Of a stretch of 64,000 nt of DNA, positions 7,383 through 64,000 are shown piece by piece; position 1 is the stretch's first letter; every line of letters begins with the position of its first letter. This DNA is from an uncultured Gammaproteobacteria bacterium (GTDB lineage: Bacteria > Patescibacteriota > Patescibacteriia > SBBC01 > CAIJZX01). The DNA lies in NCBI GenBank assembly GCA_964518425.1, contig CAZFGG010000004.1:5701-69700 (forward strand). The letters are read 5' to 3'. The notes under the pieces were generated by a model. It had not been told where the DNA came from, searched no databases, and saw nothing but the letters and a program-made list of their open reading frames with translations. Position numbers and translations under genes: made by a program.

Positions 7383-7432
7383 TCCAAAACGAGCTCCCGT
7401 GCTATACTAACCGTGTCAGAAACTACTTCACC

Positions 7433-42357: not shown

Positions 42358-42525
42358 TGGCTCCGGGGGTCGGATTTACGACCCTGGGCAGCGGCGACTT
42401 GCCACTGGCAACTCGCCGGCCGCTCGAACTTCGCTTCGCTCGTTCTTGCTTCTGCCCTTCGAATCCGCCCAATCCAGATTGCGAAGACGGACGACACAAG
42501 GTCGTCCGCTTTCGCAATGGCTCCG
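42358..42525. other. GC-rich, stop-codon-free structured intergenic element (three strong hairpins, flanking 8-nt direct repeat) at the left edge of the GC-rich island
   Basis: Hairpins: 42367-42384 (GGGTCG-gattta-CGACCC); 42393-42417 (GGCGACTTGCCA-c-TGGCAACTCGCC); 42479-42517 (17-bp imperfect stem, loop acaag). 'tggctccg' occurs at 42358-65 and 42518-25. Six overlapping non-coding ORFs in the track reflect the absence of stop codons. Confidence 0.5.
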
Positions 42526-42649
42526 CCTCGTGGACGACGTCAGAACTTGGTTCCTGACGACCACAAAATATTTCAAGATTCCGGAGCTGGATCAGGTCAG
42601 TGCTCCACGCGATGCGCAGGCTGCCTAGGGGCCGAGCCGACGCTACGTG

Positions 42650-43081
42650 TCAGCCGTTGATCAGCGTGGACAACCAGACGAGGACGACCACGGTGATGAC
42701 GATGATGACGATGTTCGTCCGCATCTGACGGACGGCGAGCTTGTCGGTCTTCTTCGGATCGAGGAATTGCTCGAACTTGGCGATCGCCTCCGGGTCGCCA
42801 GTTGGGGCCAGTGTCCCGTCCGACCTGAGCGCAACCGTCAGCCTGAGGTTCCGGGCTGGTCGGCGGGGAAAGGCAAGGTAGATCAGCCCAGGGATCACGC
42901 CGAGGAGGAGCAGGATCGCAGCGACGAGGCAGCTCGCGCCGTCGGCGGGCACGGACCGCTCGTAGCGGATGAGGTCCGGCCGACGGTCGAGTAGGACCCA
43001 GCCCCTACCCCACTTCTCAGTGTTCATGAACTCTTCGAACTCGGCGAGGGCGTGGTTGGTGGCTGGTGGTGCGGTGGACAT
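42650..43081 (-). CDS. Hypothetical membrane protein
   Basis: Two TM segments ('LVAAILLLLGVIPGLIYLAF' and 'IVIIVITVVVLVWL'). GC-rich. Confidence 0.4.
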   Translation of the reverse strand: MSTAPPATNHALAEFEEFMNTEKWGRGWVLLDRRPDLIRYERSVPADGASCLVAAILLLLGVIPGLIYLAFPRRPARNLRLTVALRSDGTLAPTGDPEAIAKFEQFLDPKKTDKLAVRQMRTNIVIIVITVVVLVWLSTLING

Positions 43082-43133
43082 GCTGCAGGTGGTTAGTTGC
43101 ACCCGGCCAGCGAGGAGCTGGCGGGTTGAACAA

Positions 43134-43352
43134 TTAGAAGGCTCTCCTTCGAGCCCGCCGGCGGTTCAGGCGGGTCAGCTGGTCGACCTGCCACAGCCGC
43201 ACGGCGCGCTGGCGATCGCGGGTCTGGAGGTAGAAGCGGATCAGGCGGCCGGCCGAAATAATCTCGGGGAGAAGAAACACCTGGATGGTCAGGCCGGCAC
43301 CAGCACCCATGCCGGCCACGAAGAGCAGGAGCGCTGAGGTGTCGAGTGTCAT
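43134..43352 (-). CDS. Small hypothetical membrane protein
   Basis: 72 aa with one TM helix and an Arg-rich C-terminus. Confidence 0.35.
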   Translation of the reverse strand: MTLDTSALLLFVAGMGAGAGLTIQVFLLPEIISAGRLIRFYLQTRDRQRAVRLWQVDQLTRLNRRRARRRAF

Positions 43353-43372
43353 GGTACGTGGATCTGGCGAAA

Positions 43373-43930
43373 CTAGGTCTCGTGGCGGACTGGAGGCGTT
43401 GGTGGTGCCGCCCGGCGTGCCAGCTGCTCATCGAGCCACTCATCCCCCGCGCGCTTGATCGCCTCCATCTCGATCACCTCGCGCAGCACCTCCAAGCCCC
43501 GCGCGAGAAAGTCGGCCTTGCGCCGCTCGTGCAGTCCCTCTTTCACCACGGCACCCGCCAGGTCTTCCCGGGGCGCCGGCCACAGCATACGCAGGTCCGT
43601 GTGGTCGACGAGCTCCAGCACGTCACGCTTGTCGATTTGGGCGGTGTGAGGGAGAAGGTCGTACAGATCGCCGAGGCCACGGGTGTATTCGCGCAACACT
43701 TCGGTTCTCTTTCCTTCGGTGTCCCACTCGTCCTCTGGGCGATGCTCGCCCTCCCGCAAGCCGCGATCATCCGAACGGCCACCATGCTTGATCGCTTCGA
43801 CCTGATCGGCAGAGGGAACAACCTCGGCTTCCGGGCTCAGAGGCCTATCTGGGACAGCTTCAAGACCGGGTGATTCCGCGGTCGGGGGAATTATGGCTTC
43901 AGGAGGTGGGAACCCTTCACGTTCGGGCAT
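43373..43930 (-). CDS. Hypothetical protein
   Basis: 185 aa, acidic, no motif recognised. Confidence 0.35.
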   Translation of the reverse strand: MPEREGFPPPEAIIPPTAESPGLEAVPDRPLSPEAEVVPSADQVEAIKHGGRSDDRGLREGEHRPEDEWDTEGKRTEVLREYTRGLGDLYDLLPHTAQIDKRDVLELVDHTDLRMLWPAPREDLAGAVVKEGLHERRKADFLARGLEVLREVIEMEAIKRAGDEWLDEQLARRAAPPTPPVRHET

Positions 43931-46738: not shown

Positions 46739-46873
46739 GCGGGGTGGTTTGGCCGACGTTGTCTACCTAAGACACGGCTGCACGTCTTCACCGCAGCAAC
46801 CCTCGGCCGCTCTTTGACAATTGGACGTGCGGATCCGTCCGTGCGCCCAAACACAACCCAAAGGAGGGTCGTC

Positions 46874-49189
46874 GTGAGACGGATGTGCTGTCTGTTTGTC
46901 GTGGGCGCGTCACTTTTCCTCAGTGTGCCGCGGTCCGCGCAGGCTACGTGCCCTGGAAACTGGGGTGATTCGCTCGCCACCTACCGCAGCGTGGTGGCCA
47001 ACTCGAACGGCACGGACGTTGGCTGTTCGAATGGCAGCAGCTCGTACGGGTACAAGTATCAGTGCGTTGAGTTCGTGAAGCGCTTCTACGGAGAGGCGAT
47101 GCACTTCTCGTCAACGCCCTGGTCAGGTGACGGTGTCGACTACTATGGCTCCGCTGCCACCAAGGGATTGCGGCAGTTTGCTGACGGCGGGTCGGTGAAG
47201 CCCAAGGAGAACGATATCCTCTGCTTCTCCGGCAACACCTTCGGGCATGTCGGCATCATCACCGAGGTAGGCTCCAACTACGTCAAGATGATCGACCAAA
47301 ATCGCACCACCTCTGGGGGATCAAACAATCCGAAGCAATTGACCCTGAGCGGCCCGAGCGGTGGGTGGTCTATCTCGAGTTTCAGTGGCTCGTACCCCGT
47401 CCAAGGCTGGCTCCGAGGCTACACTTCGGACTACAAGGATCAGACACCCAGCGGCACCGCAACCCTCACACCAGGGCAGGCGCTGTACTTCAAGGTCCGG
47501 TACACGAACACGAGTCACGCCAACGCGCCGCATTGGAAGAACGACGGCGGGAGTCAGTCCGTCGAGCTGCGGTCATGCACGAGCACGGGAGTCGAGACGA
47601 GTTCTTTCCTGTACCCCGTGAGCGGTCAGACCACATGGCTTGATCCAACCGATCGCAAGCGCATCGTGCACATGACGGAATCGGACGTAGGAGGAAACAC
47701 GGGAGTCGCCACGTTTGAGTTCTGGGCCAAGGTCCCTGAGTCCGCGACGCTGGGGACGCACAACGTCTACTTCCGCCCCTACCATCAGTCTGGTCAATGG
47801 ATTGAGGAATGGGACGGGATGTACTTCTCAATCAATGTTGTTGCCCCAATACCCGATCCGGCGTACGGATTGATCCTTCGGAATCCCTCAACCGCCGAGT
47901 GGTGGACGAGGGTGTCGAACGGCTTGGCCTTCGCCTACCCGCCTGGAGCCAACACGCCAGCTGACCTTTGGATCTCCGGATGGGCTCTTGACGACGGCAG
48001 CTACACCTTCACTCCTTACGTCGGTGACTTAAACGGCGACACCTACGACGACCTGGTCGTCGAACGCAGTGACTGCAAGTGGTACGTAGCTTGGAACAAC
48101 CAAGACGGATCATTCACCTCGCAAGGATCACCGATTCTTAACCCGTGGGCCACGTCGCCGTCCCCTGGCAAATATTTCTTCTGGTTCACCAACGTGACCG
48201 GAGATGCCAAGGACGAGCTCCTGACCTACGATGCCTCTAACGGCAACTGGTACGTCTGTACGTTCAACACCAGCACGAATACCTTCGACAACTGCAGCAC
48301 CTGGTTGACGTGGGGTGGTGGTGTCGGAACGTTTCAGCCACTCGCCGGAGATTGGAATGGCGACGGCAAGAGCGATATCTGCCTGCGCAATCCATCCACC
48401 GGCAACCACTACGTCCGGTTATCCTCTGGCACTGGCTTCTACCAGGGCACGAACGACAACTGGATCGGCTGGGGCGCGGGCAGCGAGTTCATCCCGATCG
48501 TCGGAGACTGGAACGGCGACGGCAAGGACGACCTGATGCTATGGAAAACGTCCACCGGCGAGTGGTTCGTCCGAACGTCAGATGGCACGGCCTTCGTCTA
48601 CCCCTCGGGAAGCAACTCTCCGGCCGACCGCTGGATGGTCTGGGGCGATCCGAGCTACACGCTCTTTACGGGCGACTTCAATGATGACGGCAAGGTCGAC
48701 GTTGGATTACGGAATCCAAGCACTGGCGACCACTGGGTTCGCACCTCGACTGGCCTCGCCTTCACCCAACCCTCACCAGACAACTGGTTGGCAGGGTGGG
48801 GCGGTAGTTCCTACCAGCTGCTGACCGGACGGTTTGGCAACGGGGAGCTGGGCGGTGGGTTCTCGTTGCAGCCAGCGCCTCCTGAAGATGATCAGCCACC
48901 TCCGGCGGTGCCTCTGTCGTTCAGGATTTGGGTGGCACCAAATCCAACCACGTCGAATGCTACAGTCAACTTCGCCTTGCCGACGTCTGATCGGGCCAGC
49001 ATCTCGATCTACGACGTCAGTGGTCGTGAGGTAGCTCAGTTCCCCGAGGAACCCTATGGCGTCGGCCAGCACACGCTTACGTGGAGCAGGACCAGCCCCC
49101 GTGGAGGACGGGTGGCGGACGGCATCTACTTCCTGACGTTTCGGTCGACACTTCACACGATCAGCAAGAAGATCATTGTTCTCAACTGA
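46874..49189 (+). CDS. Secreted CHAP-domain amidase/peptidase with FG-GAP repeats and a T9SS-type C-terminal sorting domain
   Basis: SD AAGGAGG 6 nt before the GTG at 46874. Signal peptide 'MRRMCCLFVVGASLFLSVPRSAQA'. CHAP domain 'YQCVEFVKRFY...FGHVGII'. At least 5 FG-GAP units ('GDWNGDGKSD', 'GDFNDDGKVD'). C-terminus 'VAPNPTTSNATVNFALP...ISIYDVSGREVAQ...ADGIYFLTF...KKIIVLN' matches the Por_Secre_tail pattern. Confidence 0.7.
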   Translation: MRRMCCLFVVGASLFLSVPRSAQATCPGNWGDSLATYRSVVANSNGTDVGCSNGSSSYGYKYQCVEFVKRFYGEAMHFSSTPWSGDGVDYYGSAATKGLRQFADGGSVKPKENDILCFSGNTFGHVGIITEVGSNYVKMIDQNRTTSGGSNNPKQLTLSGPSGGWSISSFSGSYPVQGWLRGYTSDYKDQTPSGTATLTPGQALYFKVRYTNTSHANAPHWKNDGGSQSVELRSCTSTGVETSSFLYPVSGQTTWLDPTDRKRIVHMTESDVGGNTGVATFEFWAKVPESATLGTHNVYFRPYHQSGQWIEEWDGMYFSINVVAPIPDPAYGLILRNPSTAEWWTRVSNGLAFAYPPGANTPADLWISGWALDDGSYTFTPYVGDLNGDTYDDLVVERSDCKWYVAWNNQDGSFTSQGSPILNPWATSPSPGKYFFWFTNVTGDAKDELLTYDASNGNWYVCTFNTSTNTFDNCSTWLTWGGGVGTFQPLAGDWNGDGKSDICLRNPSTGNHYVRLSSGTGFYQGTNDNWIGWGAGSEFIPIVGDWNGDGKDDLMLWKTSTGEWFVRTSDGTAFVYPSGSNSPADRWMVWGDPSYTLFTGDFNDDGKVDVGLRNPSTGDHWVRTSTGLAFTQPSPDNWLAGWGGSSYQLLTGRFGNGELGGGFSLQPAPPEDDQPPPAVPLSFRIWVAPNPTTSNATVNFALPTSDRASISIYDVSGREVAQFPEEPYGVGQHTLTWSRTSPRGGRVADGIYFLTFRSTLHTISKKIIVLN

Positions 49190-49196: not shown

Positions 49197-49235
49197 CCTC
49201 CCCCCCTCTGTTTAAGAGGTGGGGGAGTTTTTTTT
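49197..49235 (+). terminator. Rho-independent terminator (CCTCCCCCCCTCT-gtttaa-GAGGTGGGGGAG + T8)
   Basis: Long GC stem then TTTTTTTT. It separates the plus-strand CHAP gene from the convergent minus-strand array. Confidence 0.8.
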
Positions 49236-49319: not shown

Positions 49320-50222
49320 TCAGATCGAGTGATGAACGACCAAGAGGATCGCGGCAGAGGTGGCGTTGATCGCATACTCGGCCTGCGCGGCAGTCACGCT
49401 GCGCGGCTGCGTGCCACCACCGTGGGAGGTGCTCAGGCGATTTCTCATCGTCGCGACCAAGAGCAGCGGCTGCTCGAAAAAGGTTTCCAGGCCAGAGTTC
49501 TTGATCACAGCGTCGAGAAGAGGCTTCGCGGTATCGGTCGGCTGAAAGGGCAAACCCTTGATCGTGCAGACAATTTTGAGCACGCTCTCAAACGCGCTGC
49601 CACACTTGGTCAGGCAGTCGCCGTAGTCGCCCTTGCGAAAATCTTCCAGGGCCTGCAGAAATTCTTTGTTCGCCGCCCCGAACCGCCCATCAGCGAGTAG
49701 TTCAAGCGTGGGACCGACAGCCATGGCGTGGACCACCTGGGAGTCTTTCCGGATCACCCGGGGAAACTCCGCGACCCGCTGCGCCTTTCCGCCTGGCCAA
49801 TCAGACGGTACCTCTTCCCACACATGCTGGGTAAGGGCGTAGGGCAGGTCGTCACGCTGAAGGAATACGTTGATGCTCTCGATCAGCGGCTCGAGCGCAT
49901 GGACCCACCTACCCTCGCCGTGGCGGAAGATCATCTCCAGTGCATCGAGAAACTGTGGGTCAGAGCATTGCATGAGCCAGCGACCCGCTTCATCGCGAGG
50001 ATCACTGCCCCTCACTCCGAGGGTCATCGTGCCTTGGAGGTACGCCAGTCGCTTCCACAGGTCCGTCCACGCGGCACCTTCGATGCCGGCTTGGGCAACG
50101 ACCTCCTGGAAGCGCATCAGGACGCGGGTGCGAAACTCCGTGGTCAATGGCTTCAGCGTCACGTTGGTCGGCGCGTGGGTGGGTCGTCGCGAGAACACAT
50201 CGAAGAGCTTAGAGAACTCCAC
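49320..50222 (-). CDS. AbiJ-like abortive-infection protein with C-terminal Abi_C/HEPN domain (gene D of the four-gene operon)
   Basis: C-terminus 'LLLVATMRNRLSTSHGGG...AAQAEYAINATSAAILLV': Rx6H HEPN motif in the RN..(S/A)HG context typical of Abi_C. Confidence 0.6.
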   Translation of the reverse strand: MEFSKLFDVFSRRPTHAPTNVTLKPLTTEFRTRVLMRFQEVVAQAGIEGAAWTDLWKRLAYLQGTMTLGVRGSDPRDEAGRWLMQCSDPQFLDALEMIFRHGEGRWVHALEPLIESINVFLQRDDLPYALTQHVWEEVPSDWPGGKAQRVAEFPRVIRKDSQVVHAMAVGPTLELLADGRFGAANKEFLQALEDFRKGDYGDCLTKCGSAFESVLKIVCTIKGLPFQPTDTAKPLLDAVIKNSGLETFFEQPLLLVATMRNRLSTSHGGGTQPRSVTAAQAEYAINATSAAILLVVHHSI

Positions 50223-50254
50223 GAGTTGCCCCTTCTGTCAGGGAAGGGCCGACG

Positions 50255-51259
50255 TCACCCCGTCTGGACAAGCTCGGCGTCAAACTCGGCACGAACCTCG
50301 GCCAGCGTGAGTGGCTCGCCCCAAAGGTTCCGCCGCGCCTCTTCGGGCAAGGACCAGAAAGCACCAAGCGTCTGATCGTCCCTGAAATGTTCGCGAAGCA
50401 CCCCGTCGGAGAAGATACGCCGCAGGCAGAAGCGAGCGACGGCCTGCACTTCGTGGGCGAGCTGCAGGATTCTGATGATCGCCTCTTGACGAACCGGCAT
50501 CGCAACCGATTCGAGGCGATCGTTCAAGTGCTCCACGGCGCTTCGAACGTTGAACAGCGCGCGTGCCCATTCGTGCTCCCTCGGACCCACAAATAATTCT
50601 GTGCGGCTTGCGAACTGCGCTTCCGTCTTACCTCGCTCCGGAAGGATGCAGCCTTCGATGGCACGCACAAACTCATGGATGCGCTCGGCAGGATCCTCGG
50701 CCTGCAGCCCGGCATAGAAGCACTTGACGGTCGCCCGCAGTCGACGAAAACCTTGAAGGTCTTGAACAGCTCCAAGCGCGTTGCCAAGCGTGGCCGCTTC
50801 TTCTAGCTCGGCCTGACGGATCGGATCCCAAAGCACACCTTGGTTCCGAAGGAGTACCGGGACCCAGCCGTGCTGCCGCACATCGACATCTGTTCCGTGT
50901 GCGCCAGTCAGCACAATGCCCCGGCCACCGGTTGCAATGCGTGGCGCCGCCAGCATGAGTCCGTAGTAGAGCATGAACGCCCGCGTTTGGAGCGCGGCGT
51001 TTTCTCCGTCCAGAAGATCCGGGGCGCTCGTCGGAGCTACTGCCCAGAGAAAAAGGCTCGCCTTGTGAAGCTCATCCCACCCGAGCGACCCAAGCCAGCC
51101 CTTCCAGTGGTCAGGCACACTCAGAGTGATGGCACGGGTCGCATGCAACCCATCGCCGAGCGCCAAGACCTCCGGCACCGACTCATCAACTCCAACCGCG
51201 AGCGCGATGAGCGCGTACTTATGTGCGGGTGGCGGTAGGTCAGGGGGTTTGTTGCTCAT
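50255..51259 (-). CDS. Hypothetical protein, possible HEPN-like (gene C)
   Basis: 'ALFNVRSAVEHLND' has Rx4H in a helical context. Otherwise unrecognised. Its start overlaps the gene B stop (ATGA). Confidence 0.35.
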   Translation of the reverse strand: MSNKPPDLPPPAHKYALIALAVGVDESVPEVLALGDGLHATRAITLSVPDHWKGWLGSLGWDELHKASLFLWAVAPTSAPDLLDGENAALQTRAFMLYYGLMLAAPRIATGGRGIVLTGAHGTDVDVRQHGWVPVLLRNQGVLWDPIRQAELEEAATLGNALGAVQDLQGFRRLRATVKCFYAGLQAEDPAERIHEFVRAIEGCILPERGKTEAQFASRTELFVGPREHEWARALFNVRSAVEHLNDRLESVAMPVRQEAIIRILQLAHEVQAVARFCLRRIFSDGVLREHFRDDQTLGAFWSLPEEARRNLWGEPLTLAEVRAEFDAELVQTG

Positions 51260-52437
51260 GCTTCAGATCGGAGCAGGCCTGAATCCGTGTCCCACGCCGT
51301 CCCGAGGTCCTTGGTCACGCCGACCACGTAGCTGATTGCATGTTTTCGGCCGACTTCTCGCCGCGAGGTGTAGTGATCGACGACATGGGGCAGCGTTCTC
51401 AAGCCAGCCGCGAAGAGCGCCAAAGCTGATGGCAGATTGAGCAGCGTCACTGCCGCAAGAGACAACGTCGGCAGCTTCCAATCCAAGAGATCCTTGAGGA
51501 CACCGGCAAAGAGCCGATCACGCGCTGACCGGAGCTCGTTTCGATACGCCAACACTCGTGGCGCGATCTCAGTCGCCAAGATTCGCGGGACGGCGTCTGC
51601 CACTTGGTCCGGTCGCAGCTCATCGAGTCGAGCGGCCAGCGCGTTAAGTTCCACCAACCAGGCCTCGTAGGCGTCTTTGGTGGCGGCGCGGTAATCGAGG
51701 GTGTCCTTGACGCTCAACCGTTCGAGCGCGCCATCCGGAATCACGGCTCGCATGATCTCCAGCCCCAAGTACGGCGTGATCGATGAGGTTGTCTGAACGT
51801 AGCGTGGTGACCCAAGCCGAAGCGCGAGCAGTCGTCCAAAATATGCCTCGTCGCTAACCGGGATCGCCCCGATTCCCTCGGCGACCACCATCGCTGCCGT
51901 GACATGTACCGACGCCGTCATCAGCTCCCGTGCCAGAATGTCCCGCCGCGCCCTTTGCTCGCGCGCGTCAAACGCTGCGTCATGATCAGCCATGTCCCAC
52001 TGCGGCTCCAGTGGGCCGTCTCTGAGAGATCGATCTTCGGCCAATGCTCGGACGATGTCGCGGCCCTTGAGGGTCGTACCCCGAACAACAAAGTCGCCGT
52101 CGAGCGCGATAAATTTTCGCGCGAAGCGATCGTCGTTCAGCCCATCCAGGAATGTCGCGCGGAACTCTGGATTCGTCACGTCCGGCTCGAGATAGCGGTT
52201 CAAGAGCTCCCCAGGCGGGCCACCTGGGGCTGGGTGCACTGCGATGCGAACGGGGTCGCTCGCCCCGCTGACGACGCGACGAAAGAAGGAATCATGGCCG
52301 ACCATCCCCCAGTTACCGAACTTGACGGCCGGGTAGTCCATGAAATTGATCTCATCGGCGATCAGGTTCAGCCGTTTGAGCGTGGCGATGTCGCAGCCGC
52401 TCTCGCCGACATAGAGAAGCTTCATCTGCGGAGTCAT
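51256..52437 (-). CDS. Hypothetical protein (gene B)
   Basis: 393 aa with no recognisable motif. 4-nt overlaps with both neighbours indicate translational coupling. Confidence 0.4.
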   Translation of the reverse strand: MTPQMKLLYVGESGCDIATLKRLNLIADEINFMDYPAVKFGNWGMVGHDSFFRRVVSGASDPVRIAVHPAPGGPPGELLNRYLEPDVTNPEFRATFLDGLNDDRFARKFIALDGDFVVRGTTLKGRDIVRALAEDRSLRDGPLEPQWDMADHDAAFDAREQRARRDILARELMTASVHVTAAMVVAEGIGAIPVSDEAYFGRLLALRLGSPRYVQTTSSITPYLGLEIMRAVIPDGALERLSVKDTLDYRAATKDAYEAWLVELNALAARLDELRPDQVADAVPRILATEIAPRVLAYRNELRSARDRLFAGVLKDLLDWKLPTLSLAAVTLLNLPSALALFAAGLRTLPHVVDHYTSRREVGRKHAISYVVGVTKDLGTAWDTDSGLLRSEA

Positions 52438-53690
52438 ACGCGGTCCGGTTGATTGGGCGCAGGCACTTCAAACACGAGAACGGTCAGTAACACCTCACGG
52501 GCGGGATCGTCACGATGGTGGAGGGAGTAACGAAAACTGGTCTCCGCGAGCTTGGCGTGTTCGCGAACGAACTCGGGCCGAGCTCGAACGACCTCGGGGA
52601 CCTTTTCGAGGACTGTAGAAAGTTTTCGTCCTCGGTTGAAAAGCAGGATGGCGGTTTTTGTGTCGCGCCACGTCGTGTACCCCATGAGTTGGGTGATGGC
52701 AGCATCAAACGCCTTCGGCCCTTCCCAGAACTTGCACTCGCCGATGAAAATATTTCTTCCGCGGATGCGGATAAGAATGTCCGTCTTGCCTTCGAAGTTG
52801 AAGGTTTCGCCTGTCGCCTGACCCTCGAATTGGCCGTTGAGCTGAACCAGAAAGTGCTGCCGGATGGCTTCCTCATCCATGGTCCGAAAGGCTTCCGGAC
52901 TTTGCTCCATGACAGCCACCATGTTGCTCATGATCCGAAGGATTTGCTCGTAGGTCTCCATGTCGAGCATCGGCTCGAGCTGCCCCGCAGCCGTGAGATT
53001 CGGAGTGGGCGGCATCGGCAACTTGCGCTTCACCTCCGGCACGGCGAACGTTTGAGGTGCTCCCTCACGCCGGCGAACCGGGAATCCGAGGCCTGCCACC
53101 ACGTCCTGGCTTTTGATCAGCCGCTCGCGACGGGCGTCAATCCGCGCTTGGGCTTTCCCAGGGAGGCTCTCGTTGAACGGCGCCACGTCGGTCGCGATCG
53201 TCGCGACATATCCCTTGATGTTCGCGAGGTCGCGATCGAATTCACCCTTGACTGCCGCTGGATCGTGGTCGGTTCGCAGGTAGGTGAAGTGGAGCTCGCT
53301 GCCCTGAACCGCAGCCCGTGGTGGGTTGTAGGTGTAGCTCGAAGGCCGGCACGTGAGGAGCGGCGCATCGCCTGAGAACGGTAGGTAGTAGGTGATTTGC
53401 GTTGCATTGGCGTAGACCGGGCCTTCGCGGTCTCTGTAGAACGCGAAATTGTTCGGATCGCGGCTGACGTCCTTCCGGCTTTCGGTCTGGTCGACCTGGA
53501 TCCTGTCCTCGTGGAGGACAATCGGGTTGATTCGGTACTTTTCGGCGAAGTAGGCGGCCAACTTGTCGGGCGGCGTACCGAGGAGTTGCTTGGCGTCCAT
53601 CGCGTCGACCTCCTGGTTCATGGAGGCCTCCTGCGCCCGCATCGCGCCACCAAGGTCGTTCTTGCTGAAGAGGAAATCTTCGCGAGGCAT
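52434..53690 (-). CDS. PD-(D/E)xK nuclease-fold protein (gene A)
   Basis: C-terminal 'GETFNFEGKTDILIRIRGRNIFIGECKFW' reads as E...D...ExK. The ORF track extends to 53768 but would overlap the recombinase stop by 26 nt, so an internal Met (e.g. 'MPREDF') is preferred. Start uncertain. Confidence 0.5.
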   Translation of the reverse strand: MPREDFLFSKNDLGGAMRAQEASMNQEVDAMDAKQLLGTPPDKLAAYFAEKYRINPIVLHEDRIQVDQTESRKDVSRDPNNFAFYRDREGPVYANATQITYYLPFSGDAPLLTCRPSSYTYNPPRAAVQGSELHFTYLRTDHDPAAVKGEFDRDLANIKGYVATIATDVAPFNESLPGKAQARIDARRERLIKSQDVVAGLGFPVRRREGAPQTFAVPEVKRKLPMPPTPNLTAAGQLEPMLDMETYEQILRIMSNMVAVMEQSPEAFRTMDEEAIRQHFLVQLNGQFEGQATGETFNFEGKTDILIRIRGRNIFIGECKFWEGPKAFDAAITQLMGYTTWRDTKTAILLFNRGRKLSTVLEKVPEVVRARPEFVREHAKLAETSFRYSLHHRDDPAREVLLTVLVFEVPAPNQPDRV

Positions 53691-53742
53691 GCCGTCCTGA
53701 ATAATTTCGTAAGAGGTTGAGCAGTCGATCCTGAGATTCAAA

Positions 53743-55734
53743 CTATGCCGATGTGGTTGACCCGTCAAGAGTTACACCAACGGTCAGGGTTGTGTCCGTC
53801 GGGCCGAGGACGCCTTCAAGCTTGAGCAGCGTGAGTCGGGACGGCGTGTAGGTTCCTAGCTCCGTGTTTCGGATGGTCCTGACGTGGATCCTTGCCCGGC
53901 TTGCCAGGTCATCCTGAGTTAGCCCGAGGCGGAGCCTAGCCGCTCGGATCCGTCCGGGCAGCCCGTCTCGCTCAGGGACGAGTCCTGAGCCAAGGACCGA
54001 TTCGATTGCTGGCCAGCGGCGAGACAGGGGCACGTTGAGGCCACGTTCCCAGCCGGCCACGGTCTGATACCAGCACCCGAGTTTCTTGGCGAGGGTTTGT
54101 TGCGTCAGGCCGACATCCATCCGCCGCTGGCGAATCCGGTCGCCCAAGGTGACGGGGCAGTGCGGATAACCCCTTGGGAACACACGCGGTCTGGCAGCGG
54201 TCAGTCTGAGAGCGGTAAAAGGCAACGCAACAGTGAAGTTGTGTTGCCTTTTACCTACGTCTTCGGCGGAGCAGGGAAAGGGGCTAAGGTCAATCTCGAC
54301 AACCTCCTTTCCCACCTGGATCTTCTCGACGATGGCTTCGATGATGGCCTGCTTTTCCTCGGCGGTGAGGGTCGGCCAGCGGGCATAGAGGTCGCGGGTT
54401 TCGGAGAGGATCTCATCCCGGCCGAGGAACTGAACCTTCAGGAAGTCCAGCTCCCCCTGAAGCCTGGGCAGCTCCTCTTCCAAGCCCTTCAGCCGCTCTT
54501 CGAGCGGGCGATAGGTCCGGCCGAATCCTTCGGGTGAAATCTGGTCGGTCACGTAGAGCCGATAGATCTTCTCCATCTCCTGCCGGACTTTGGTCAGGTC
54601 CCCATCCAGGCTGACGAGCCGCTCCTCCTTGGCTTTGATCTCCTCGTCAGCTTGCCCGAGGTGCCGAGCCACATCGTCGGGTGAAAGGAAGAAGTCCCGC
54701 AGCTGTTCATGGAAGACGGCTTCAAGATCGCCGACCGCGATCTTGTTCCGGCACCTTCGGCAGATGTATTTCCCGGCTTGGTAGCTGGCGTCGACGTACA
54801 TCTTGCCGCCACAGTGACAGTGGGCCACGCCAGCAAAGAGGTGGAGCGGCTTGCGCGCCGGTCGCTTCAGACGCTCTCGCTGCTGGTCGAGGATCGCCAG
54901 GCACGCCGCCCACGTCTCGGCCGGGATGATCGGTTCGACGGATGAGAGCACCCACTCATCCTGCGGCTTGAGCTTCCAGGCCTTCTTCTCTCCGAGCGAC
55001 TTCGTGTAGTTGGCCCGACGCGTGCCCTTGGCAATGGGATCACGCAGCAGCCGATCGATCGAGGTGTCAGAAAACTTTCCGCCACCCCGCGTGCGGTAGC
55101 CCTTCTCATTGAGTAGCCGGGCCACCGCTTTCTTGCGGCGGTGCTCGAGGAACAGCTCGTAGATGAGCTTGCGGATCGGCGCTTCCTGCGGGTCCGGCCG
55201 GAGCTGGCGGTCTTTCCACTGATAACCGAAGGGTGCAGCACCGCCGGTTGACTTGCCGAGCTTGGCGCGGATCGACACCGACGCGGCCACGCGCTCGCCG
55301 ATTTCCTCCCGCTCCCACTGCGCCATGGCCGCAATCATCGTGTAGAAGAGCCGGCCAGCCGGCGTCGAGGTGTCGATGGCCTCTTGGAGCGAGATGAGAT
55401 CGGCCCCGTCTCGCCGAAAAATATCCGCAAAGTCCAGCAGCTCTTTGGTGTTTCGCGCCAGCCGAGCCAGCTTTGAAAAAATCAGGCCTGTGATGTGGCC
55501 GCTGGCGATGTCCTGGAGCATCCGTTTCGCTTCTGGATGCCCCATCACGGATTTCCCGCTCACCGCTTCGAGGTGATAGACCTCGCGGATCTTCCAGCCC
55601 TTTGACTCGGCGTAGGCGCGGGCACGCCGTTCGTGATGCTCCGGGCTTTCGCCCCTGGCTTGGTCTTCGGTCGAGACGCGGATCCAGATCCCGACAGGCT
55701 TCGCCTGCTCGTGTGCCCCAGTCTTGGTGCCCAT
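53743..55734 (-). CDS. Large serine recombinase with two C-terminal XRE-family HTH domains
   Basis: Resolvase catalytic 'IWIRVSTEDQ', recombinase domain, zinc ribbon 'CHCGGKMYVDASYQAGKYICRRCRNK', coiled coil. Then 'LTQQTLAKKLGCWYQTVAGWERG' and 'LTQDDLASRARIHVRTIRNTELG' HTH_XRE-like units. Confidence 0.8.
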   Translation of the reverse strand: MGTKTGAHEQAKPVGIWIRVSTEDQARGESPEHHERRARAYAESKGWKIREVYHLEAVSGKSVMGHPEAKRMLQDIASGHITGLIFSKLARLARNTKELLDFADIFRRDGADLISLQEAIDTSTPAGRLFYTMIAAMAQWEREEIGERVAASVSIRAKLGKSTGGAAPFGYQWKDRQLRPDPQEAPIRKLIYELFLEHRRKKAVARLLNEKGYRTRGGGKFSDTSIDRLLRDPIAKGTRRANYTKSLGEKKAWKLKPQDEWVLSSVEPIIPAETWAACLAILDQQRERLKRPARKPLHLFAGVAHCHCGGKMYVDASYQAGKYICRRCRNKIAVGDLEAVFHEQLRDFFLSPDDVARHLGQADEEIKAKEERLVSLDGDLTKVRQEMEKIYRLYVTDQISPEGFGRTYRPLEERLKGLEEELPRLQGELDFLKVQFLGRDEILSETRDLYARWPTLTAEEKQAIIEAIVEKIQVGKEVVEIDLSPFPCSAEDVGKRQHNFTVALPFTALRLTAARPRVFPRGYPHCPVTLGDRIRQRRMDVGLTQQTLAKKLGCWYQTVAGWERGLNVPLSRRWPAIESVLGSGLVPERDGLPGRIRAARLRLGLTQDDLASRARIHVRTIRNTELGTYTPSRLTLLKLEGVLGPTDTTLTVGVTLDGSTTSA

Positions 55735-55740: not shown

Positions 55741-57003
55741 TTACACGCGGGGGCGTGCTTGTTTGCGCACTAGCTTCCGACCGTGAATCCGGTCGCGGCG
55801 GAACTTGAGTGCAGTCTGACGCACGGCGATCTCTGACTTCAACTTCGCTGCATCACGAGCCATTGAGAGAAATTGTCCGAGTTCTTCAAGATTTTCGAAC
55901 TTCCCGGAGAGCTGCATGGAAAACGTTAGGAGTTCGGCCACAAACCGATGGAGCTGCAAGGCAGCCTTGCGGGCATCGACACCACCCGTCCCGGAGTGCG
56001 CGGTGCCATTTCTCCGGTCACGAAGCATTTCCAAGACGTACCAGATCAGGGGTTCGTCCTCGTAAAGAAACCGGACTCGCTGGATCGTGGCGTCATAGCG
56101 ATCGCCGCCAGTAGCGGTCAGTGTTTCCAGCAGCGACCACAGCTGCAGAACCGTGACTTCGTGATCGACGCCATCCAAAGCCCGACAGTATCGGACCATG
56201 ATCCTTCGCAACTCTCGTCCGAGCGTTGTTTCCTTGATGGCGGCCCGGATGGCCGCGACCTGCTCAGCCATCCCCTGCCACTTTCCACTTAGATCGACAG
56301 AGAAGGAGTCCTTCACTGGGAAGAGCTCGTACCACCACACCTCTCCCGCTGGCTTTCCGTTCGGGAGATGCAGCGTGTGAATCGGGCCGATCCGGACTTG
56401 ATTGATCGGGACATTTTCGCGAGGGCCGAACTGACTCCACACCCGCCGGTTGAGAACGAAGTTCCAGATCCCTCGGACAAAATCTAGTCGCTCCAAACCG
56501 GCATCGAGCGCTTCGTTAATTGTCCGCGCGCGACCACTTACTCTGACGTGCGCCAGTCGAAGATGCTGCTCGCCGTACTCAGCCCACACATGCTCTGGCA
56601 CGTAGCTTCGATCGAAGCCCTTGGGCGGACCATCAGAAAAGGTCATGGTCCAACCGTCGAAGACCTGGCGAGTGAGTTTCGGGAAGTACCGGCACGATAG
56701 CGATGCCACGAGCACGAATGGCAGCTGTGGCTGAGCAAGGAAGCGGCGTGATCGACGGTCAAGCTCAGCCAGCAGGCGTGCTTTCGTAATGGCACCGGAC
56801 CCGGCGACCGTGGAAATAGCTTCCTGACAGAGGCCGAGCCGATCACGTTCCGACGTGGCCTCATCAAGCGGAGCGTGCACACTGAGTGAAGCGACGAGTT
56901 CATCGAACCAGGTTGAGTCAAACCCACCTGACGGCTTCTTGGCTCGCTCGAGTTCCTTGGCCACAATCTCCACGTCAACGATGCTCTTCAAATCGCGAGG
57001 CAT
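55741..57003 (-). CDS. HEPN (Abi_C / Swt1-like, RNxxAH) domain protein
   Basis: C-terminal 'YVLEMLRDRRNGTAHSGTGG' has R-N-x-x-A-H. The N-terminal ~300 aa are unrecognised. It lies 10 nt downstream of the HerA-like NTPase gene. Confidence 0.55.
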   Translation of the reverse strand: MPRDLKSIVDVEIVAKELERAKKPSGGFDSTWFDELVASLSVHAPLDEATSERDRLGLCQEAISTVAGSGAITKARLLAELDRRSRRFLAQPQLPFVLVASLSCRYFPKLTRQVFDGWTMTFSDGPPKGFDRSYVPEHVWAEYGEQHLRLAHVRVSGRARTINEALDAGLERLDFVRGIWNFVLNRRVWSQFGPRENVPINQVRIGPIHTLHLPNGKPAGEVWWYELFPVKDSFSVDLSGKWQGMAEQVAAIRAAIKETTLGRELRRIMVRYCRALDGVDHEVTVLQLWSLLETLTATGGDRYDATIQRVRFLYEDEPLIWYVLEMLRDRRNGTAHSGTGGVDARKAALQLHRFVAELLTFSMQLSGKFENLEELGQFLSMARDAAKLKSEIAVRQTALKFRRDRIHGRKLVRKQARPRV

Positions 57004-57013
57004 GCTACTTGGG

Positions 57014-60000
57014 TCATCCCTTCTTCTTTAGGCGGCGAAGGGCCTTAGCAATCACGGCCGACACCGCTCCATGCTTGGCTTCCTGTTCCTCGGCTTGCCC
57101 GGGACGGCGACGGACGCGGACGCGGTAACCGCGCACCGTCGACTCCTCGGCTGGTTGGAGCGAGTGCAGTCCACCGAGAAGATCAAGGACTTCCTCCGGG
57201 CTGACGAGGTGCACGCGCTCAAACTGTTCCGGGGTGAGCGCAGCCTTGGCCAGGGTGCGGATATGCCCGAGGCGACGCTTTTCCCCAGAAACTATCACCA
57301 CGAAGGAGAATCCTGCGGCCACACACTTCTGAAGATTTTGCGCCTCGTGCTCAGCCGGGGAGCTGACGACAATTTCGCAGGCGACCGACGTTCCATTCTT
57401 TCGAAGCGCAACATCCACACTCCCCAACCCATCGAGTACCGCTTCCTCGATCGTTGCGCCCCAGCCGTTCGCGAGTGCCCAGCGTCGAATGAGGTCTTGG
57501 AGGTACTTGTGCTGCGCACCGCCTCGTCCGGCCGTGGACGGAAGTGTCGCCGAATCGACGACCGAAGTGGTTGCCGCCACCGGTGGCAACGGTGAGCTGA
57601 CCGGAACGGGCCTCGCGTGTCGCGGTGAGGACGCTGGTGTCGGTTCCTCGACAGCTGCCGCCGGTGCATCTGCCTCCCGCCCGGACCGGATGATCGCTTC
57701 AATCTCGGCTCTGGGCCGGGCGTACTGCTCCCGTGATGCGGCAACAACCTTCGCCCGATTAGTTTCGGCGACTGCCTCGTCGAGAGCCGACAAGAGCGGA
57801 GTGCGAAGGTTGAAATCCCAATCGGCTCGTTCCACCCGGGCAATAGCTTCACCGGTGCCGAGATTCTGGAGGTCGTCAGCGTTGAAGCTGGAGAAGCCCT
57901 TCGCCAGAAGCCGAGCATCCTCGTCACCGACTCTGAAGGAGACACGCGTGGCTGGATTGGCGAGGACGGAGGCCAGCACGTCGCCACTGCGACTCTGGAG
58001 CTGTCGCAAGTCCTGGTGAGCAAGCACCAGTGCCAAGCCATACTTTCGAGCGCCGGAGAGAATCTGCGCCATCGAGGGGGTAACGAAGTGGTGGAATTCG
58101 TCGATGTAAAGGTAGAAGGGCCGGCGCTTCCCTTCGGCTACGTCTTGTCGGCTCATCGCCACCTGATGGAGCTTGGAGACGAGCAACGTCCCAAGCAGAT
58201 GTGCGTTTTCCTCGCCAATCGCCCCGTGCGAGAGCCGACAAAGAAGGATCTTTCCCTCGTCCATGACTCGCCGCAGGTCAAGCCGGCTATCTTGCTGGGC
58301 CACCATGTACCGGATCGGCTTTGGGCGAAGGAAGGAGTCGAGGCGCGTCAGAATCGGGGCCTGCGGTCGGCCACGCAGCAGCGGAAATTCTCGCTCCCAA
58401 AAATAAATGACGTCCGGGTCGCGAACGGTCTTGAGGAATTCCTTCCGGAATCGATCTTCGACCAGGAACCGCCGCAGGTCCACCAGCGTGCCGCCCTGCT
58501 CGCTTTCAACGAAGGCCAGCACGGCGTTCCCGAGCACGGACGTCATCTGGTCGCCCCAGCTCATGGACATGCGCTGGAACACCATCACGAGGTCTGATGA
58601 CAGGAGCGTTTTCTCGAGATCCGAGGCGGCCGAGAGGATGTTGAAGCCGATCGGGAACTCGGCATCTGCCGGGTCGAGCAAGATGACGTCTTGAAGACGG
58701 CCCTCAGGAACAAGGCCCAGAACGCGATCAATCAGATCGCCGTGAGGATCGAAGACGGCGAGGCCTTCGCCGTTCTCAAGGTCTTGTCGGATGAGATTCA
58801 GCAAGAGCGTAGACTTCCCAGTGCCGGATGCTCCGATGACGTACATGTGTCGCGATCGGTGATCGGCGGAGAGCCTGACCTCGTCCACCTGATCATCGTG
58901 GACGTTCTGTCCAAGGCAAACACCTTGGCTCAGGACGGACGGGGGTGCGGCCTTTGTCTTGTGTCCATGCCGCAGCAACCGCGGGTCGCGAACGCCACTG
59001 GTCGGCAGGTGCACGAGCGAGGCGAGCTCCTCGACACTCAGGAGCATGCCGCTGCGATGTGAGCGCCGGCCGAGGAGATCATCCTCGTGCTGCTGGGACG
59101 AGTAGTCACCGTCTGGCTGCAGCGGGATGAGTTCATTTGCGAGTGGATCGCTCAGGGCTCCCATGGCACCGGCCACCTGGCGTGCCACCGCTATCGCCCG
59201 CCCACGCGTTGGGCTCTTGATCCCGACCCGAATGACGCTGGCGAACAGCGGGCGCGCCACCTTCGCCTTGGCGAGGGCGGAGATCTCCGGCGCATCGATA
59301 AAAAACGGAGACCCCTGTTCGTCCAGAACCGCGCGCAATATTTCGCGTGCCCAAGGCTGGCGCGCTCGGCAGGCTAGTACCTGGAAGAGCCCTGCCTCAC
59401 CAGCCCGCAGATTGGAGAGTGCACCCACCACCCCAGCCAGCGGATCGACGTCAAATTTTCTTACCGCACGGAGGGGTACCATGAACTCGTGGGCCAAGCC
59501 GAAGTCCACTACGACGGCTTCACCGCCGAGCGCGTCCCACCTCGGGGCCACGGCTTCACGTCCCCGAGAAACGAGGATTTCGGGAAAGTAGGCCTTCAGG
59601 CATTGCGACAGAACCGGCTCGTCTTCGGCTGAACACGTGAACAACAGCCGGGTCGATTCTTCGGCTCCGAACAGCTCAAAGGCAATCGGGCCAATGGCGG
59701 TAGGAAGAGCGAGAAGGAACTGCTCGGCGGCCTCGCGAGAAACATCGAGATCCGGCGGCACAGCAACAAGCAGCTGTGCGATCTCTTCGTGCCCGCGCCA
59801 CCGACCAGGTGTCGGCTCGTCGAAACTGCTGTCTTCACTCGCCTCGGTCGGCCTGCCTCCAGATGTGCCGACGAGCCGATCCGTCAGACGACTTAAGAGT
59901 GTCGGGCGGCGACCATCATCGAGTCTGTCCGGTGACGTCGCGATCTGCGGAAAATAAAATGGCCTGAACGGCGGCTCAAGTTCGACCGGCTCTGGCCATA

Positions 60001-60067
60001 GCTGCCAACCGCGGCCTCGTCTTTCCCAGGCGTAGAAGTGATCAGTCAGCGACTCGATCGAAGACAC
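57014..60067 (-). CDS. HerA/FtsK-superfamily P-loop NTPase (DUF87/TraD-like core) with large N-terminal and C-terminal extensions
   Basis: Walker A 'VIGASGTGKSTLL', 'LAVFDPHGDLID', Walker B 'FYLYIDEFHHF', 'LALVLAHQDLRQL' (TraG-D_C-like). C-terminal 'SVDVALRKNGTSVACEIVVS' is restriction-endonuclease-like. 1017 aa. Confidence 0.65.
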   Translation of the reverse strand: MSSIESLTDHFYAWERRGRGWQLWPEPVELEPPFRPFYFPQIATSPDRLDDGRRPTLLSRLTDRLVGTSGGRPTEASEDSSFDEPTPGRWRGHEEIAQLLVAVPPDLDVSREAAEQFLLALPTAIGPIAFELFGAEESTRLLFTCSAEDEPVLSQCLKAYFPEILVSRGREAVAPRWDALGGEAVVVDFGLAHEFMVPLRAVRKFDVDPLAGVVGALSNLRAGEAGLFQVLACRARQPWAREILRAVLDEQGSPFFIDAPEISALAKAKVARPLFASVIRVGIKSPTRGRAIAVARQVAGAMGALSDPLANELIPLQPDGDYSSQQHEDDLLGRRSHRSGMLLSVEELASLVHLPTSGVRDPRLLRHGHKTKAAPPSVLSQGVCLGQNVHDDQVDEVRLSADHRSRHMYVIGASGTGKSTLLLNLIRQDLENGEGLAVFDPHGDLIDRVLGLVPEGRLQDVILLDPADAEFPIGFNILSAASDLEKTLLSSDLVMVFQRMSMSWGDQMTSVLGNAVLAFVESEQGGTLVDLRRFLVEDRFRKEFLKTVRDPDVIYFWEREFPLLRGRPQAPILTRLDSFLRPKPIRYMVAQQDSRLDLRRVMDEGKILLCRLSHGAIGEENAHLLGTLLVSKLHQVAMSRQDVAEGKRRPFYLYIDEFHHFVTPSMAQILSGARKYGLALVLAHQDLRQLQSRSGDVLASVLANPATRVSFRVGDEDARLLAKGFSSFNADDLQNLGTGEAIARVERADWDFNLRTPLLSALDEAVAETNRAKVVAASREQYARPRAEIEAIIRSGREADAPAAAVEEPTPASSPRHARPVPVSSPLPPVAATTSVVDSATLPSTAGRGGAQHKYLQDLIRRWALANGWGATIEEAVLDGLGSVDVALRKNGTSVACEIVVSSPAEHEAQNLQKCVAAGFSFVVIVSGEKRRLGHIRTLAKAALTPEQFERVHLVSPEEVLDLLGGLHSLQPAEESTVRGYRVRVRRRPGQAEEQEAKHGAVSAVIAKALRRLKKKG

Positions 60068-60082
60068 GGGCGTCCCTTGCTT

Positions 60083-60772
60083 TCAGCACGGCTTGAGGCC
60101 AAGAGCACAAACTACCTTCCAAGGATCCGGTTCGATCCTGGCGGTGCGCTTGAACCCACCACCCCTCCACCAGAGACATTTGTCGAGCGCCCGGATCGGA
60201 GACTTCGGTTCGACCTCGCCCATCCAGCGTGGATCCTCATCGCTGAGTTTTCTTGTGTTCCGAAACTCATGCCTCACAATTTCGCGATAGGCCGAGTCGG
60301 CGGGGCGTGTGTCGACGATCCCCAGCGCCGTACGTACGTAACTGTCGTAGACGGGAATTCGCCAAGGCATGAGCCAATGAAGCGTCTTCGAAGCCAGGGA
60401 CAGTTCGTATCGTCCCGCTCCACCTTCGAGCAGGTTGTCAGCGAACTGCTCGACTTGCTCGACGGCAAAACGCTCGCCCGCAGGATCAAATCGGTCGGCG
60501 AAGTGGGCCTCGGTCCACGACTGGCGAACGAGTGCGCTGGCTCCGACGGTGTCAATGTCAGCTCGGGAATACTGGATGCCCCACCACTCCTTGATCGTGC
60601 GGATAAGCGCAACGACTACAGGGGTGTCCTTGCCGAGCAAGAGATCCGATCGAGCGTATCGGGCGAGACACCACAACACGCGGTCCATCTCGCCCCATAG
60701 CCCATTAAACGTCTCGACATCCTTTTGGATTTCGGGAGCGCTGAGGATCGCGGCCAAAGGACCCCTCGCCAT
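60083..60772 (-). CDS. Hypothetical protein
   Basis: 229 aa, no motif. Confidence 0.35.
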   Translation of the reverse strand: MARGPLAAILSAPEIQKDVETFNGLWGEMDRVLWCLARYARSDLLLGKDTPVVVALIRTIKEWWGIQYSRADIDTVGASALVRQSWTEAHFADRFDPAGERFAVEQVEQFADNLLEGGAGRYELSLASKTLHWLMPWRIPVYDSYVRTALGIVDTRPADSAYREIVRHEFRNTRKLSDEDPRWMGEVEPKSPIRALDKCLWWRGGGFKRTARIEPDPWKVVCALGLKPC

Positions 60773-62231: not shown

Positions 62232-64000
62232 TTACGCCGCCGGCTGATAGAGGAACTTCTGGAACCCGGCGAAAACTCGGCCAATTTCCTCCGGTTCGCC
62301 GAGGTCGGTCACCGCGTCATTGATGGAGTCGTGGTACTTGAGCCGCAGCAGCGGCGTCAACTTCGACTGGTCAAGCTCCTCCACGCCCACGGTCACGTAG
62401 TGCGAGAGCACGAAGTCCAGAAACGCCTGCTGCTTCGCGGTGAAGTGAGCCGCGATCTCCACCTTGGCTTTCAGTGCTCGCGCTTCGCGCGTGACGGGAG
62501 CGAACGCGTAGGCGACATAAGCCAACACGTCGAACAGGTCGCTTTTCTCCGCGTCGATAATTTTCTGCATCTCCGCGAGCTGTTCCCGTCCAAAACCACG
62601 TTCGGCCAAGCCCTGTAGCAGTCTTGCGCGCGTATCCGGCGCGCTCCAGATGGCTCGCAGTTCGGCTTCATCCCTGAAGAACTCAGGTAGTTTACCGAAG
62701 AGCGTTTCCATGAACTGCTGTGCTGACATCGGCGTGCCGTCTGGATGCCAGAACGTCGTGACCATCATGTGCTGGATGTTGCGCGCCTTGCCGTCAGCGA
62801 GCTTGACCTTGACCTTCGTGCGCGGCGGCACTGGATCCGGCGCTGGTCCTGGCGTGGGCGGAGGCGATAGCGGACCCGGCCCGGGCGAGACAGGTTTCGG
62901 TTCCGGCTCGACAGGCTCGCCATCCCACTCTCGATCACTGAAGTGGTGGTACGCCTTCACGAAATCGTAAATCGTGAAGTAGTCCTTTCCATCGTAGAGG
63001 CGCGTGCCTCGCCCGATGATCTGCTTGAACTCGATCATCGAGTTGATTGGACGCATCAGGACGATGTTGCGAACGTTGCGCGCGTCCACACCGGTCGAGA
63101 GTTTCTGGGAGGTCGTGAGGATGGTTGGCACGAGCTTCTCGTTGTCCTGGAAGTCGCGCAGGTGCTGGTCACCGAGCGCTCCGTCATTGGCCGTGACCCG
63201 GTGGCAGTAGTTCGGGTCCTTGCTCGACTTTATCTGGTTGATCAGATCACGAACCGCAAGGGCGTGATCCTGAGTGGCGCAAAACACGAGCGTTTTGTCG
63301 TTCTGGTTGATCTGGTCCATAAATATTTTGACCCGATGCGCCTCGCGCTCCTTGATCTCGATGATCTTGTTGAACTCGGTCTCCGTGTACACCTTGCCGC
63401 TCTCGACCTCTCCTTCCACGAGCTGGTCATCCGGCGTGTAGACGTACTCGTCGAGCGTGGTCGAGATCTGCTTCACTTTGAACGGGGTCAGGAAACCGTC
63501 GTTGATCCCGTCCTTGAGCGAGTAGATGTAGACCGGGTCGCCGAAGTAGGCGTAGGTGTCGACGTTGTCCTGTCGCTTCGGTGTGGCGGTCATGCCGAGC
63601 TGCACGGCGGGCGCGAAGTAGGTCAGGATGTCGCGCCAGTTGCTTTCGTCGTTGGCGCCTCCGCGGTGGCACTCGTCGATGACGATGAAGTCGAAGAAGT
63701 CCGGTGGGTACTCGCCGAAGTACGGACTGGGCTTGCCGTCCTTGGGCGGCCCGCTCATGAAGGTCTGAAAGATCGTGAAGAAGATGCTGCCGTTCTTCGG
63801 GACCCTGCCCTTCTTCCGGATGTCGCTCGGAGCTATGCGCACGAGCGCATCCTCAGGAAATGATGAGAAGGCGTTGTATGCCTGGTCGGCGAGGATGTTG
63901 CGATCCGCCAGGAAAAGAATGCGCGGACGCCGCGTCGGCTCGCCACTCAGGTTCCATCGCGAGTGAAACAGTTTCCACGCGATCTGAAACGCAATGAAGG
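62232..64000 (-). CDS. hsdR: Type I restriction enzyme R subunit (HsdR), C-terminal ~590 aa; N-terminal part beyond the window edge
   Basis: Helicase motif II 'FVIDECHRG', motif III 'GMTATP', 'YFGDPVYIYSLKDGINDGFLTPF', and an HsdR-specific C-terminal domain ('LFDVLAYVAYAFAPVTREARA'). The reading frame stays open to position 64000. Confidence 0.85.
   Translation of the reverse strand, partial: FIAFQIAWKLFHSRWNLSGEPTRRPRILFLADRNILADQAYNAFSSFPEDALVRIAPSDIRKKGRVPKNGSIFFTIFQTFMSGPPKDGKPSPYFGEYPPDFFDFIVIDECHRGGANDESNWRDILTYFAPAVQLGMTATPKRQDNVDTYAYFGDPVYIYSLKDGINDGFLTPFKVKQISTTLDEYVYTPDDQLVEGEVESGKVYTETEFNKIIEIKEREAHRVKIFMDQINQNDKTLVFCATQDHALAVRDLINQIKSSKDPNYCHRVTANDGALGDQHLRDFQDNEKLVPTILTTSQKLSTGVDARNVRNIVLMRPINSMIEFKQIIGRGTRLYDGKDYFTIYDFVKAYHHFSDREWDGEPVEPEPKPVSPGPGPLSPPPTPGPAPDPVPPRTKVKVKLADGKARNIQHMMVTTFWHPDGTPMSAQQFMETLFGKLPEFFRDEAELRAIWSAPDTRARLLQGLAERGFGREQLAEMQKIIDAEKSDLFDVLAYVAYAFAPVTREARALKAKVEIAAHFTAKQQAFLDFVLSHYVTVGVEELDQSKLTPLLRLKYHDSINDAVTDLGEPEEIGRVFAGFQKFLYQPAA

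Follow-up and report, generated by a model that had tools for sequence, protein, structure and literature searches.

Organization of Four Adjacent Minus-Strand Genes

The window analyzed here is a 64,000-nucleotide (nt) stretch of contig CAZFGG010000004.1 (assembly GCA_964518425.1), assigned to an uncultured Gammaproteobacteria bacterium. Its subject is a set of four adjacent genes, A to D, which an initial annotation had proposed as one multi-component abortive-infection or defense system. The open reading frame (ORF) list of the window contains all four, co-directional on the minus strand: A (52434–53690, 418 amino acids [aa]), B (51256–52437, 393 aa), C (50255–51259, 334 aa), and D (49320–50222, 300 aa). 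The A/B junction (GTATGACT) and the B/C junction (GCATGAGC) are both ATGA start/stop overlaps of 4 nt. Between C and D lie 32 nt, and the GTG start of D is preceded by a Shine–Dalgarno-like GAAGGGG. The order, overlaps, and gap given in the initial annotation were therefore confirmed.

For gene A, the stop side of the annotated ORF was retained and the start was corrected. Because the PADLOC profile and all homologs align only from residue 27 of the longer ORF, the start was moved from TTG at 53768 to an alternative ATG at 53690 (MPREDF...), which carries AGGA 8 nt upstream. Gene A most likely begins at 53690, and this start leaves a 52-nt gap after the stop of the upstream recombinase gene in place of a 26-nt overlap.

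The four genes form the end of a longer array of eight co-directional minus-strand genes that spans 60772 to 49320, the successive intervals measuring 15, 10, 6, 52, −4, −4, and 32 nt. Tight gaps were found across all eight, and no spacing that would set A–D apart from their surroundings was seen. The large serine recombinase, which had been taken as one boundary of the operon, lies inside this array 52 nt upstream of A, and the array runs on through it. Furthermore, 4-nt overlaps join 5 of the 35 co-directional neighbor pairs in the whole window (14%); being this frequent, they are on their own no evidence of a dedicated system.

The other proposed boundary, a strong terminator, did not hold either. 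A GC-rich hairpin at 49205–49225, between convergent genes, has a folding energy of −27 kcal/mol on both strands and a T-run on the plus strand only; seen from the minus strand, an A-run lies ahead of it and no U-run follows. As the U-run is on the plus strand, the hairpin is assigned as the intrinsic terminator of the convergent CHAP/FG-GAP gene (46814–49189), and for D it is bidirectional at best.

Distribution of the Four Genes in Other Genomes

Homolog-bearing loci were collected in a census of 130 loci (1.2 Mb), comprising 80 genome loci and 1 plasmid locus for A, 32 loci for B, 10 for C, and 7 for D; the B loci came in part from a metagenome scan with a 24-sequence alignment. When these loci were searched by tblastn with all four proteins, exactly one protein was found per locus (A only in 81, B only in 32, C only in 10, and D only in 7), and none of the 130 loci held two of the four genes. 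The initial annotation had named a failure to co-occur elsewhere as what would speak against a joint system, and this is what was found. Since each gene occurs in other genomes without the other three, A–D are read as independent modules. The relatives adjoin Gabija, Shedu, CBASS, AbiV, restriction–modification (R-M), and toxin–antitoxin (TA) genes, and large serine recombinases likewise occur near C and D relatives at several loci.

Gene A Is a Member of the PDC-S54 Family

Gene A (52434–53690, minus strand) matched the PADLOC family PDC-S54, a single-gene phage defense candidate, from end to end (E 1.8e-150, 500 bits; ORF residues 27–436 against profile positions 1–407 of 410). The protein consists of an N-terminal region of no assigned fold, a helical or coiled middle, and a C-terminal PD-(D/E)xK-like region. 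The putative nuclease motif, D304 ... E318-C-K320 (52731–52781, minus strand; GKTDILIRIRGRNIFIGECKFW), lies in a near-invariant block, GETFNxxGKTDILIRxxGxNIFIGECKFWxG, and no variation was seen at D304, E318, K320, or Q334 across 34 homologs of 26–47% identity. Judged from these residues, A carries the signature expected for a PD-(D/E)xK nuclease and is a putative member of that class. The restriction-endonuclease-like core of the initial annotation was accordingly upheld in its motif; its fold found no match, with no Pfam, NCBIfam, or PDB relatives of A recovered by sequence or profile searches. The only hints of a fold for the C terminus were weak DUF234 and HSDR_N matches in a few family members.

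Relatives of A numbered 109 in the genome representatives, and the loci of 80 of them were examined. After clustering of the ORFs within 4 kb, every neighbor family was present in at most 5 of the 80 loci and none was recurrent, which fits the single-gene class of PADLOC. Twenty plasmids and 2 phage records likewise carry A as a gene standing alone, labeled "hypothetical protein". In the literature searched, no experimental report on PDC-S54 and no paper mentioning the name was found.

Gene D Encodes an AbiJ-Family HEPN Protein

Gene D (49320–50222, minus strand) combines a putative AbiJ-NTD4-type N-terminal domain with an AbiJ/Abi_C (DUF7014) HEPN domain. The Pfam score for DUF7014 was 46.2 bits (cut-off, 27). 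The remaining matches fell below their cut-offs: Abi_C just under it (20.5 bits; cut-off, 24), AbiJ_NTD4 (17 bits, E 0.0085; cut-off, 34), and NCBIfam STM4504/CBY_0614 (101.7 bits, E 4e-29; cut-off, 150). At least 491 homologs of the same length were found; most bear a precomputed Abi_C hit, alone or together with AbiJ_NTD4, and the AbiJ_NTD4 hit (PF18863) is present in many full-length homologs. The HEPN motif, R260-N-R-L-S-T-S-H267 (49422–49445, minus strand), follows the pattern R-N-x(5)-H, and across 28 homologs R260, N261, H267, and G268 do not vary. The AbiJ-like Abi_C HEPN assignment made at the outset is borne out by these results.

The combination of AbiJ-NTD4 and AbiJ-HEPN domains was described by Anantharaman et al. 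(2013; PMC3710099), with CBY_0614 as the NTD4 prototype, and members of this family are described there as self-contained sensor-plus-HEPN proteins. The PADLOC model of lactococcal AbiJ matched residues 255–288 of D only (34 residues, E 1e-4), and orthology with lactococcal AbiJ was ruled out because full-length similarity to the model is lacking. By sequence, D is a diverged member of the AbiJ family and not an AbiJ ortholog. With A already catalogued as PDC-S54 and D a regular member of a family already described, the earlier statement that the system could be matched to nothing named does not stand.

Around the nearest D relatives, the flanks examined contain neither A nor B nor C, and some of these relatives have an upstream intergenic region of their own; at one locus (L092), a gene lies ~100 nt downstream of the D relative. 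Two D relatives were found in viral contigs, where relatives of B and C were not found.

Gene C Encodes a Two-Domain HEPN Protein

Gene C (50255–51259, minus strand) encodes an N-terminal alpha/beta domain (residues ~1–135) followed by a C-terminal HEPN-like helical domain (residues ~149–334). Its Rx4H motif, R239-S-A-V-E-H244 (50528–50545, minus strand), had been regarded as a weaker one; the VRSAVEHL block that includes R239 and H244 is nevertheless invariant in 16 of 16 C homologs, down to 30% identity. The structure model of C is confident and shows the four-helix HEPN fold, and HEPN proteins were its top fold-search matches, in agreement with the original designation of C as a putative HEPN protein. 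In the model, the motif lies on the helix preceding the long last helix, matching the H3 position reported for ApeA and HepT. On the strength of the conserved motif and the predicted fold, C is assigned as an HEPN protein. A profile search of C against the PDB gave nothing significant, and Foldseek with the C model gave no PDB match at E ≤0.001 and no solved structure alike over the whole protein.

The nearest relatives of C (76, 71, and 51% identity), which come from three independent lineages, have a gene for a conserved ~193-aa protein immediately upstream. In two of these lineages the two genes overlap by ATGA, and in the remaining one they lie 7 nt apart. The 193-aa protein has no Pfam match and carries an Rx4H-like motif, R-N-[DE]-F-x-H-F. 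Pairs of the 193-aa gene and a C homolog were located at L004:7423–9005, L008:7406–9014, and L010:7423–9005 and also in L005, L009, and L011, and the two proteins may constitute an undescribed two-gene HEPN-type module. The presence of this partner in the window was ruled out by tblastn and by a maximum-sensitivity hidden Markov model (HMM) search, and comparison of the 193-aa protein with B showed no similarity.

C homologs without an adjacent 193-aa gene were found in L007, a Candidatus Eisenbacteria metagenome-assembled genome, and in L097 and L127. Among such C relatives, one adjoins Shedu and has only a weak 193-aa-like ORF, ~1.1 kb downstream. The L097 homolog (6001–7566) is a distant one (32% identity) on plasmid pBsp2S1b of Bradyrhizobium sp. 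2S1. Ten nucleotides downstream of it lies a 178-aa ORF annotated as "methionyl-tRNA formyltransferase-like", which is PD-(D/E)xK-like and shows a PD...E-V-K pattern (PDLLVHK...VIEVKS), and this pair is situated within an island holding HEPN/Toprim, AbiV, and CBASS genes.

Gene B Represents an Uncharacterized Stand-Alone Family

Gene B (51256–52437, minus strand) may start at its second ATG (M5, MKLLY), where its homologs begin. As the initial annotation had stated, B has no recognizable motif, and no Pfam, PADLOC, or NCBIfam match was obtained. A word-index search returned 7 homologs, and an exhaustive HMM search returned 487 cluster representatives. Pfam and PADLOC scans of ten diverse members, including N-terminally extended forms, were empty, and profiles from both shallow and deep alignments gave nothing significant against the PDB.

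The one conserved feature described here is a hydrophobic segment at residues ~322–355 (51373–51474, minus strand; LPTLSLAAVTLLNLPSALALFAAGLRTLPHVV), followed by a basic tail, with a Kyte–Doolittle (KD) maximum of 1.85. In 55 of 65 members of the B family, the hydrophobicity maximum lies at 81–91% of the protein length, and in 43 of 65 it reaches a KD value of at least 1.6. Prolines are present in this conserved C-terminal stretch, which is possibly a membrane anchor or hairpin that inserts into the membrane.

No recurrent neighbor was present in the 32 B loci, and B itself was the sole gene common to them. The neighbors are mixed and include Gabija, Mrr_cat, HEPN_AbiU2, Ymh, resolvase, and transposase genes as well as many metabolic and housekeeping genes. 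A subgroup of the family (P0216, P0218, P0233, and P0256; 586–622 aa) carries a conserved N-terminal extension of ~215 aa with 37–44% mutual identity; the extension has no Pfam match and does not occur in the window.

Genomic Surroundings of the Array

The large serine recombinase (53743–55734, minus strand) matched Pfam Resolvase (3.7e-32), Recombinase (5e-19), and, twice, HTH_3. Its two C-terminally fused XRE-type helix-turn-helix domains (residues ~530–578 and ~596–644) are an uncommon architecture for an integrase. Upstream of it lie three tightly spaced co-directional genes (55741–60772, minus strand) encoding 229-, 1017-, and 420-aa ORFs. The 1017-aa product is a TrwB/TraG/HerA-like ATPase with a match to PADLOC mad8 (7.5e-24), and it is preceded by the 229-aa ORF, which has a weak DUF6308 match; together, these two (57014–60772, minus strand) could form a separate defense or transfer module. 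The 420-aa ORF (55741–57003, minus strand), which separates the mad8-like ATPase from the recombinase, contains the Rx4H-like sequence RDRRNGTAHSG at residues 328–338 (55990–56022) and has no Pfam, PADLOC, or NCBIfam match. A relationship of this ORF to C was ruled out (hhalign probability, 0.5%).

Farther upstream, a type I restriction R subunit (62232–64000, minus strand; PADLOC REase_I 1.9e-88, EcoEI_R_C) extends past the right end of the window, and the start at 63842 in the ORF list is an artifact created by the window edge. The defense context suggested by the initial annotation is plausible, with this type I R-M gene, the mad8-like ATPase, and the serine recombinase nearby. On the other side, the gene convergent to D (46814–49189, plus strand) encodes a 791-aa secreted protein with a CHAP domain, FG-GAP repeats, and a type IX secretion system C-terminal sorting domain. 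Similar FG-GAP/FlgD_ig proteins flank the B and C homologs in L001 and L008, which hints that these contigs come from related organisms. The GC content rises from ~0.53 to ~0.60 at window positions ~42000–43500 and stays high to the window end, a step suggesting that a horizontally acquired island, enclosing the whole region studied, has its left border here.

Independent Modules Stacked on a Recombinase-Associated Island

We read the region as the tail of a packed co-directional array on a serine-recombinase-associated island, in which A, B, C, and D are four evolutionarily independent, stand-alone modules of abortive-infection or toxin type, and we put the probability of this reading at about 0.75. 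The four genes are probably co-transcribed, through their stacking only. Co-transcription says nothing on joint function, and there was no sign that any gene needs another.

Mechanisms can be proposed for the single genes. In A, the C-terminal PD-(D/E)xK-type nuclease (D304/E318/K320) would be held inactive by the large N-terminal part, and this auto-inhibition might be lifted on infection so that nucleic acid is cut; both the activity and the trigger are conjectured from the motif. For B, we can only guess at a helical protein that acts alone as a membrane-associated effector or sensor. C could, to judge from its fold and motif, be a two-domain HEPN RNase whose N-terminal alpha/beta domain serves as sensor or inhibitor and whose composite Rx4H site would form on dimerization, as in other HEPN toxins. 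In D, the N-terminal domain may sense a phage component and release the RNase, resulting in growth arrest. Such sensor-gated arrest by an HEPN RNase has been shown for ApeA and is proposed for AbiJ proteins (PMC3710099).

Several observations weigh against four independent modules. The main caveat is that the sampled relatives are distant, with identities of at most 47% for A, 59% for B, 60% for D, and 76% for C, so that a lineage-specific association among close relatives of the organism would lie outside the sample. Two successive ATGA overlaps followed by a 32-nt gap are compatible with translational coupling in a genuine operon, and no promoter-like site turned up for any single gene. In addition, the usual upstream partner of C has been lost, and B occupies exactly that slot as a possible functional replacement. 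The structure model of B is unreliable, with a predicted local distance difference test score of 52 that falls below 50 in the hydrophobic segment.

The last of these relations between genes leads to a lineage-specific B–C module, in which B would have taken the place of the 193-aa partner and would regulate or neutralize the HEPN RNase of C, and possibly that of D, with A independent. Its attraction is that C is coupled to an upstream 193-aa gene in three independent lineages, and that in the window, where the partner is missing, B takes this position and joins C by the same kind of ATGA overlap. However, B is unlike the 193-aa protein in sequence, it lies beside neither a C-like gene nor any recurrent gene in its 32 loci, and the partner is not obligatory, as the three loci with C and no adjacent 193-aa gene indicate. 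We consider such a module unlikely. An extended form, equally doubtful, is a lineage-specific composite in which B displaced the small partner of C and gates C and perhaps D, giving a new B-dependent HEPN system beside a PDC-S54 nuclease; its modest version would make B and C each a new single-gene antiphage defense.

A function other than antiviral defense was weighed as well. The genes could be addiction or stabilization toxins, or cargo for competition between elements, carried by an integrative element, or some of them could be decaying passengers. The large serine recombinase and the TraG/HerA-like ATPase alongside, the many housekeeping genes around B homologs, and the standing of PDC-S54 as a candidate without an experimental report in the literature searched would all suit this explanation. 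On the other hand, the four ORFs are intact, the catalytic-type residues of A, C, and D are conserved, and the relatives adjoin the antiphage, R-M, and TA genes listed above. Furthermore, HEPN proteins of the AbiJ and ApeA types are proposed or established abortive-infection effectors (AbiJ: PMC3710099). A non-antiviral role is improbable on this balance.

Least probable is the single abortive-infection system of the initial annotation, with the nuclease and two HEPN RNases as effectors, B as sensor or regulator, and stoichiometry fixed by translational coupling: the shared strand, the overlaps and short gap, and the failure to find any minus-strand site resembling a terminator within the cluster speak for it, but no census locus holds two of the genes, A is catalogued as a single-gene candidate and has no conserved partner, the proteins of the family to which D belongs are described as self-contained (PMC3710099), and the spacing is equally tight upstream across unrelated genes, including the recombinase, in a window where ATGA overlaps are frequent.

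Comparison with Known Systems

Had the four-part system held, it would have been a new defense architecture. With four independent modules preferred, the locus is instead a worked example that start/stop overlaps within a defense island need not mean a functional unit. It also provides two uncatalogued stand-alone defense candidates, B, with its 487 cluster representatives and conserved hydrophobic tail, and C, a compact two-domain HEPN protein.

Among the known systems, C most resembles single-protein HEPN RNases of the ApeA/HepT type, with which it shares a non-catalytic N-terminal domain and an HEPN domain bearing an invariant Rx4H on an H3-like helix. It differs from ApeA in size and composition, C having 334 aa and two domains and ApeA ~580 aa and three. 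None of the 16 members of the C family matched Pfam HEPN_Apea or PADLOC ApeA at E ≤1, and no PADLOC model matched them at the thresholds applied; the sole link to ApeA is the UniRef label "Apea-like HEPN" on one homolog. D corresponds to the AbiJ-NTD4 HEPN family, with a putative alpha+beta N-terminal domain of ~160 aa and a C-terminal HEPN domain with RN...H as in that family.

Compared with PDC-S54, A shows no difference: the profile match is full length, and there is no conserved partner in 80 genomes. The mechanism suggested here for PDC-S54 derives from the D...ExK motif only, and B, C, and D fall outside that candidate. The locus adds evidence that PDC-S54, with its D...ExK motif, behaves as a self-contained gene.

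What is new at this locus is the B and C families, which are missing from PADLOC 2.0.0 and in this respect set the array apart from described defense islands on integrative or mobile elements; A, D, and the type of locus are of kinds already known. In its overall plan, the region is like those islands, with unrelated stand-alone defense-type genes stacked beside a recombinase, a type I R-M system, and a mad8-like ATPase.

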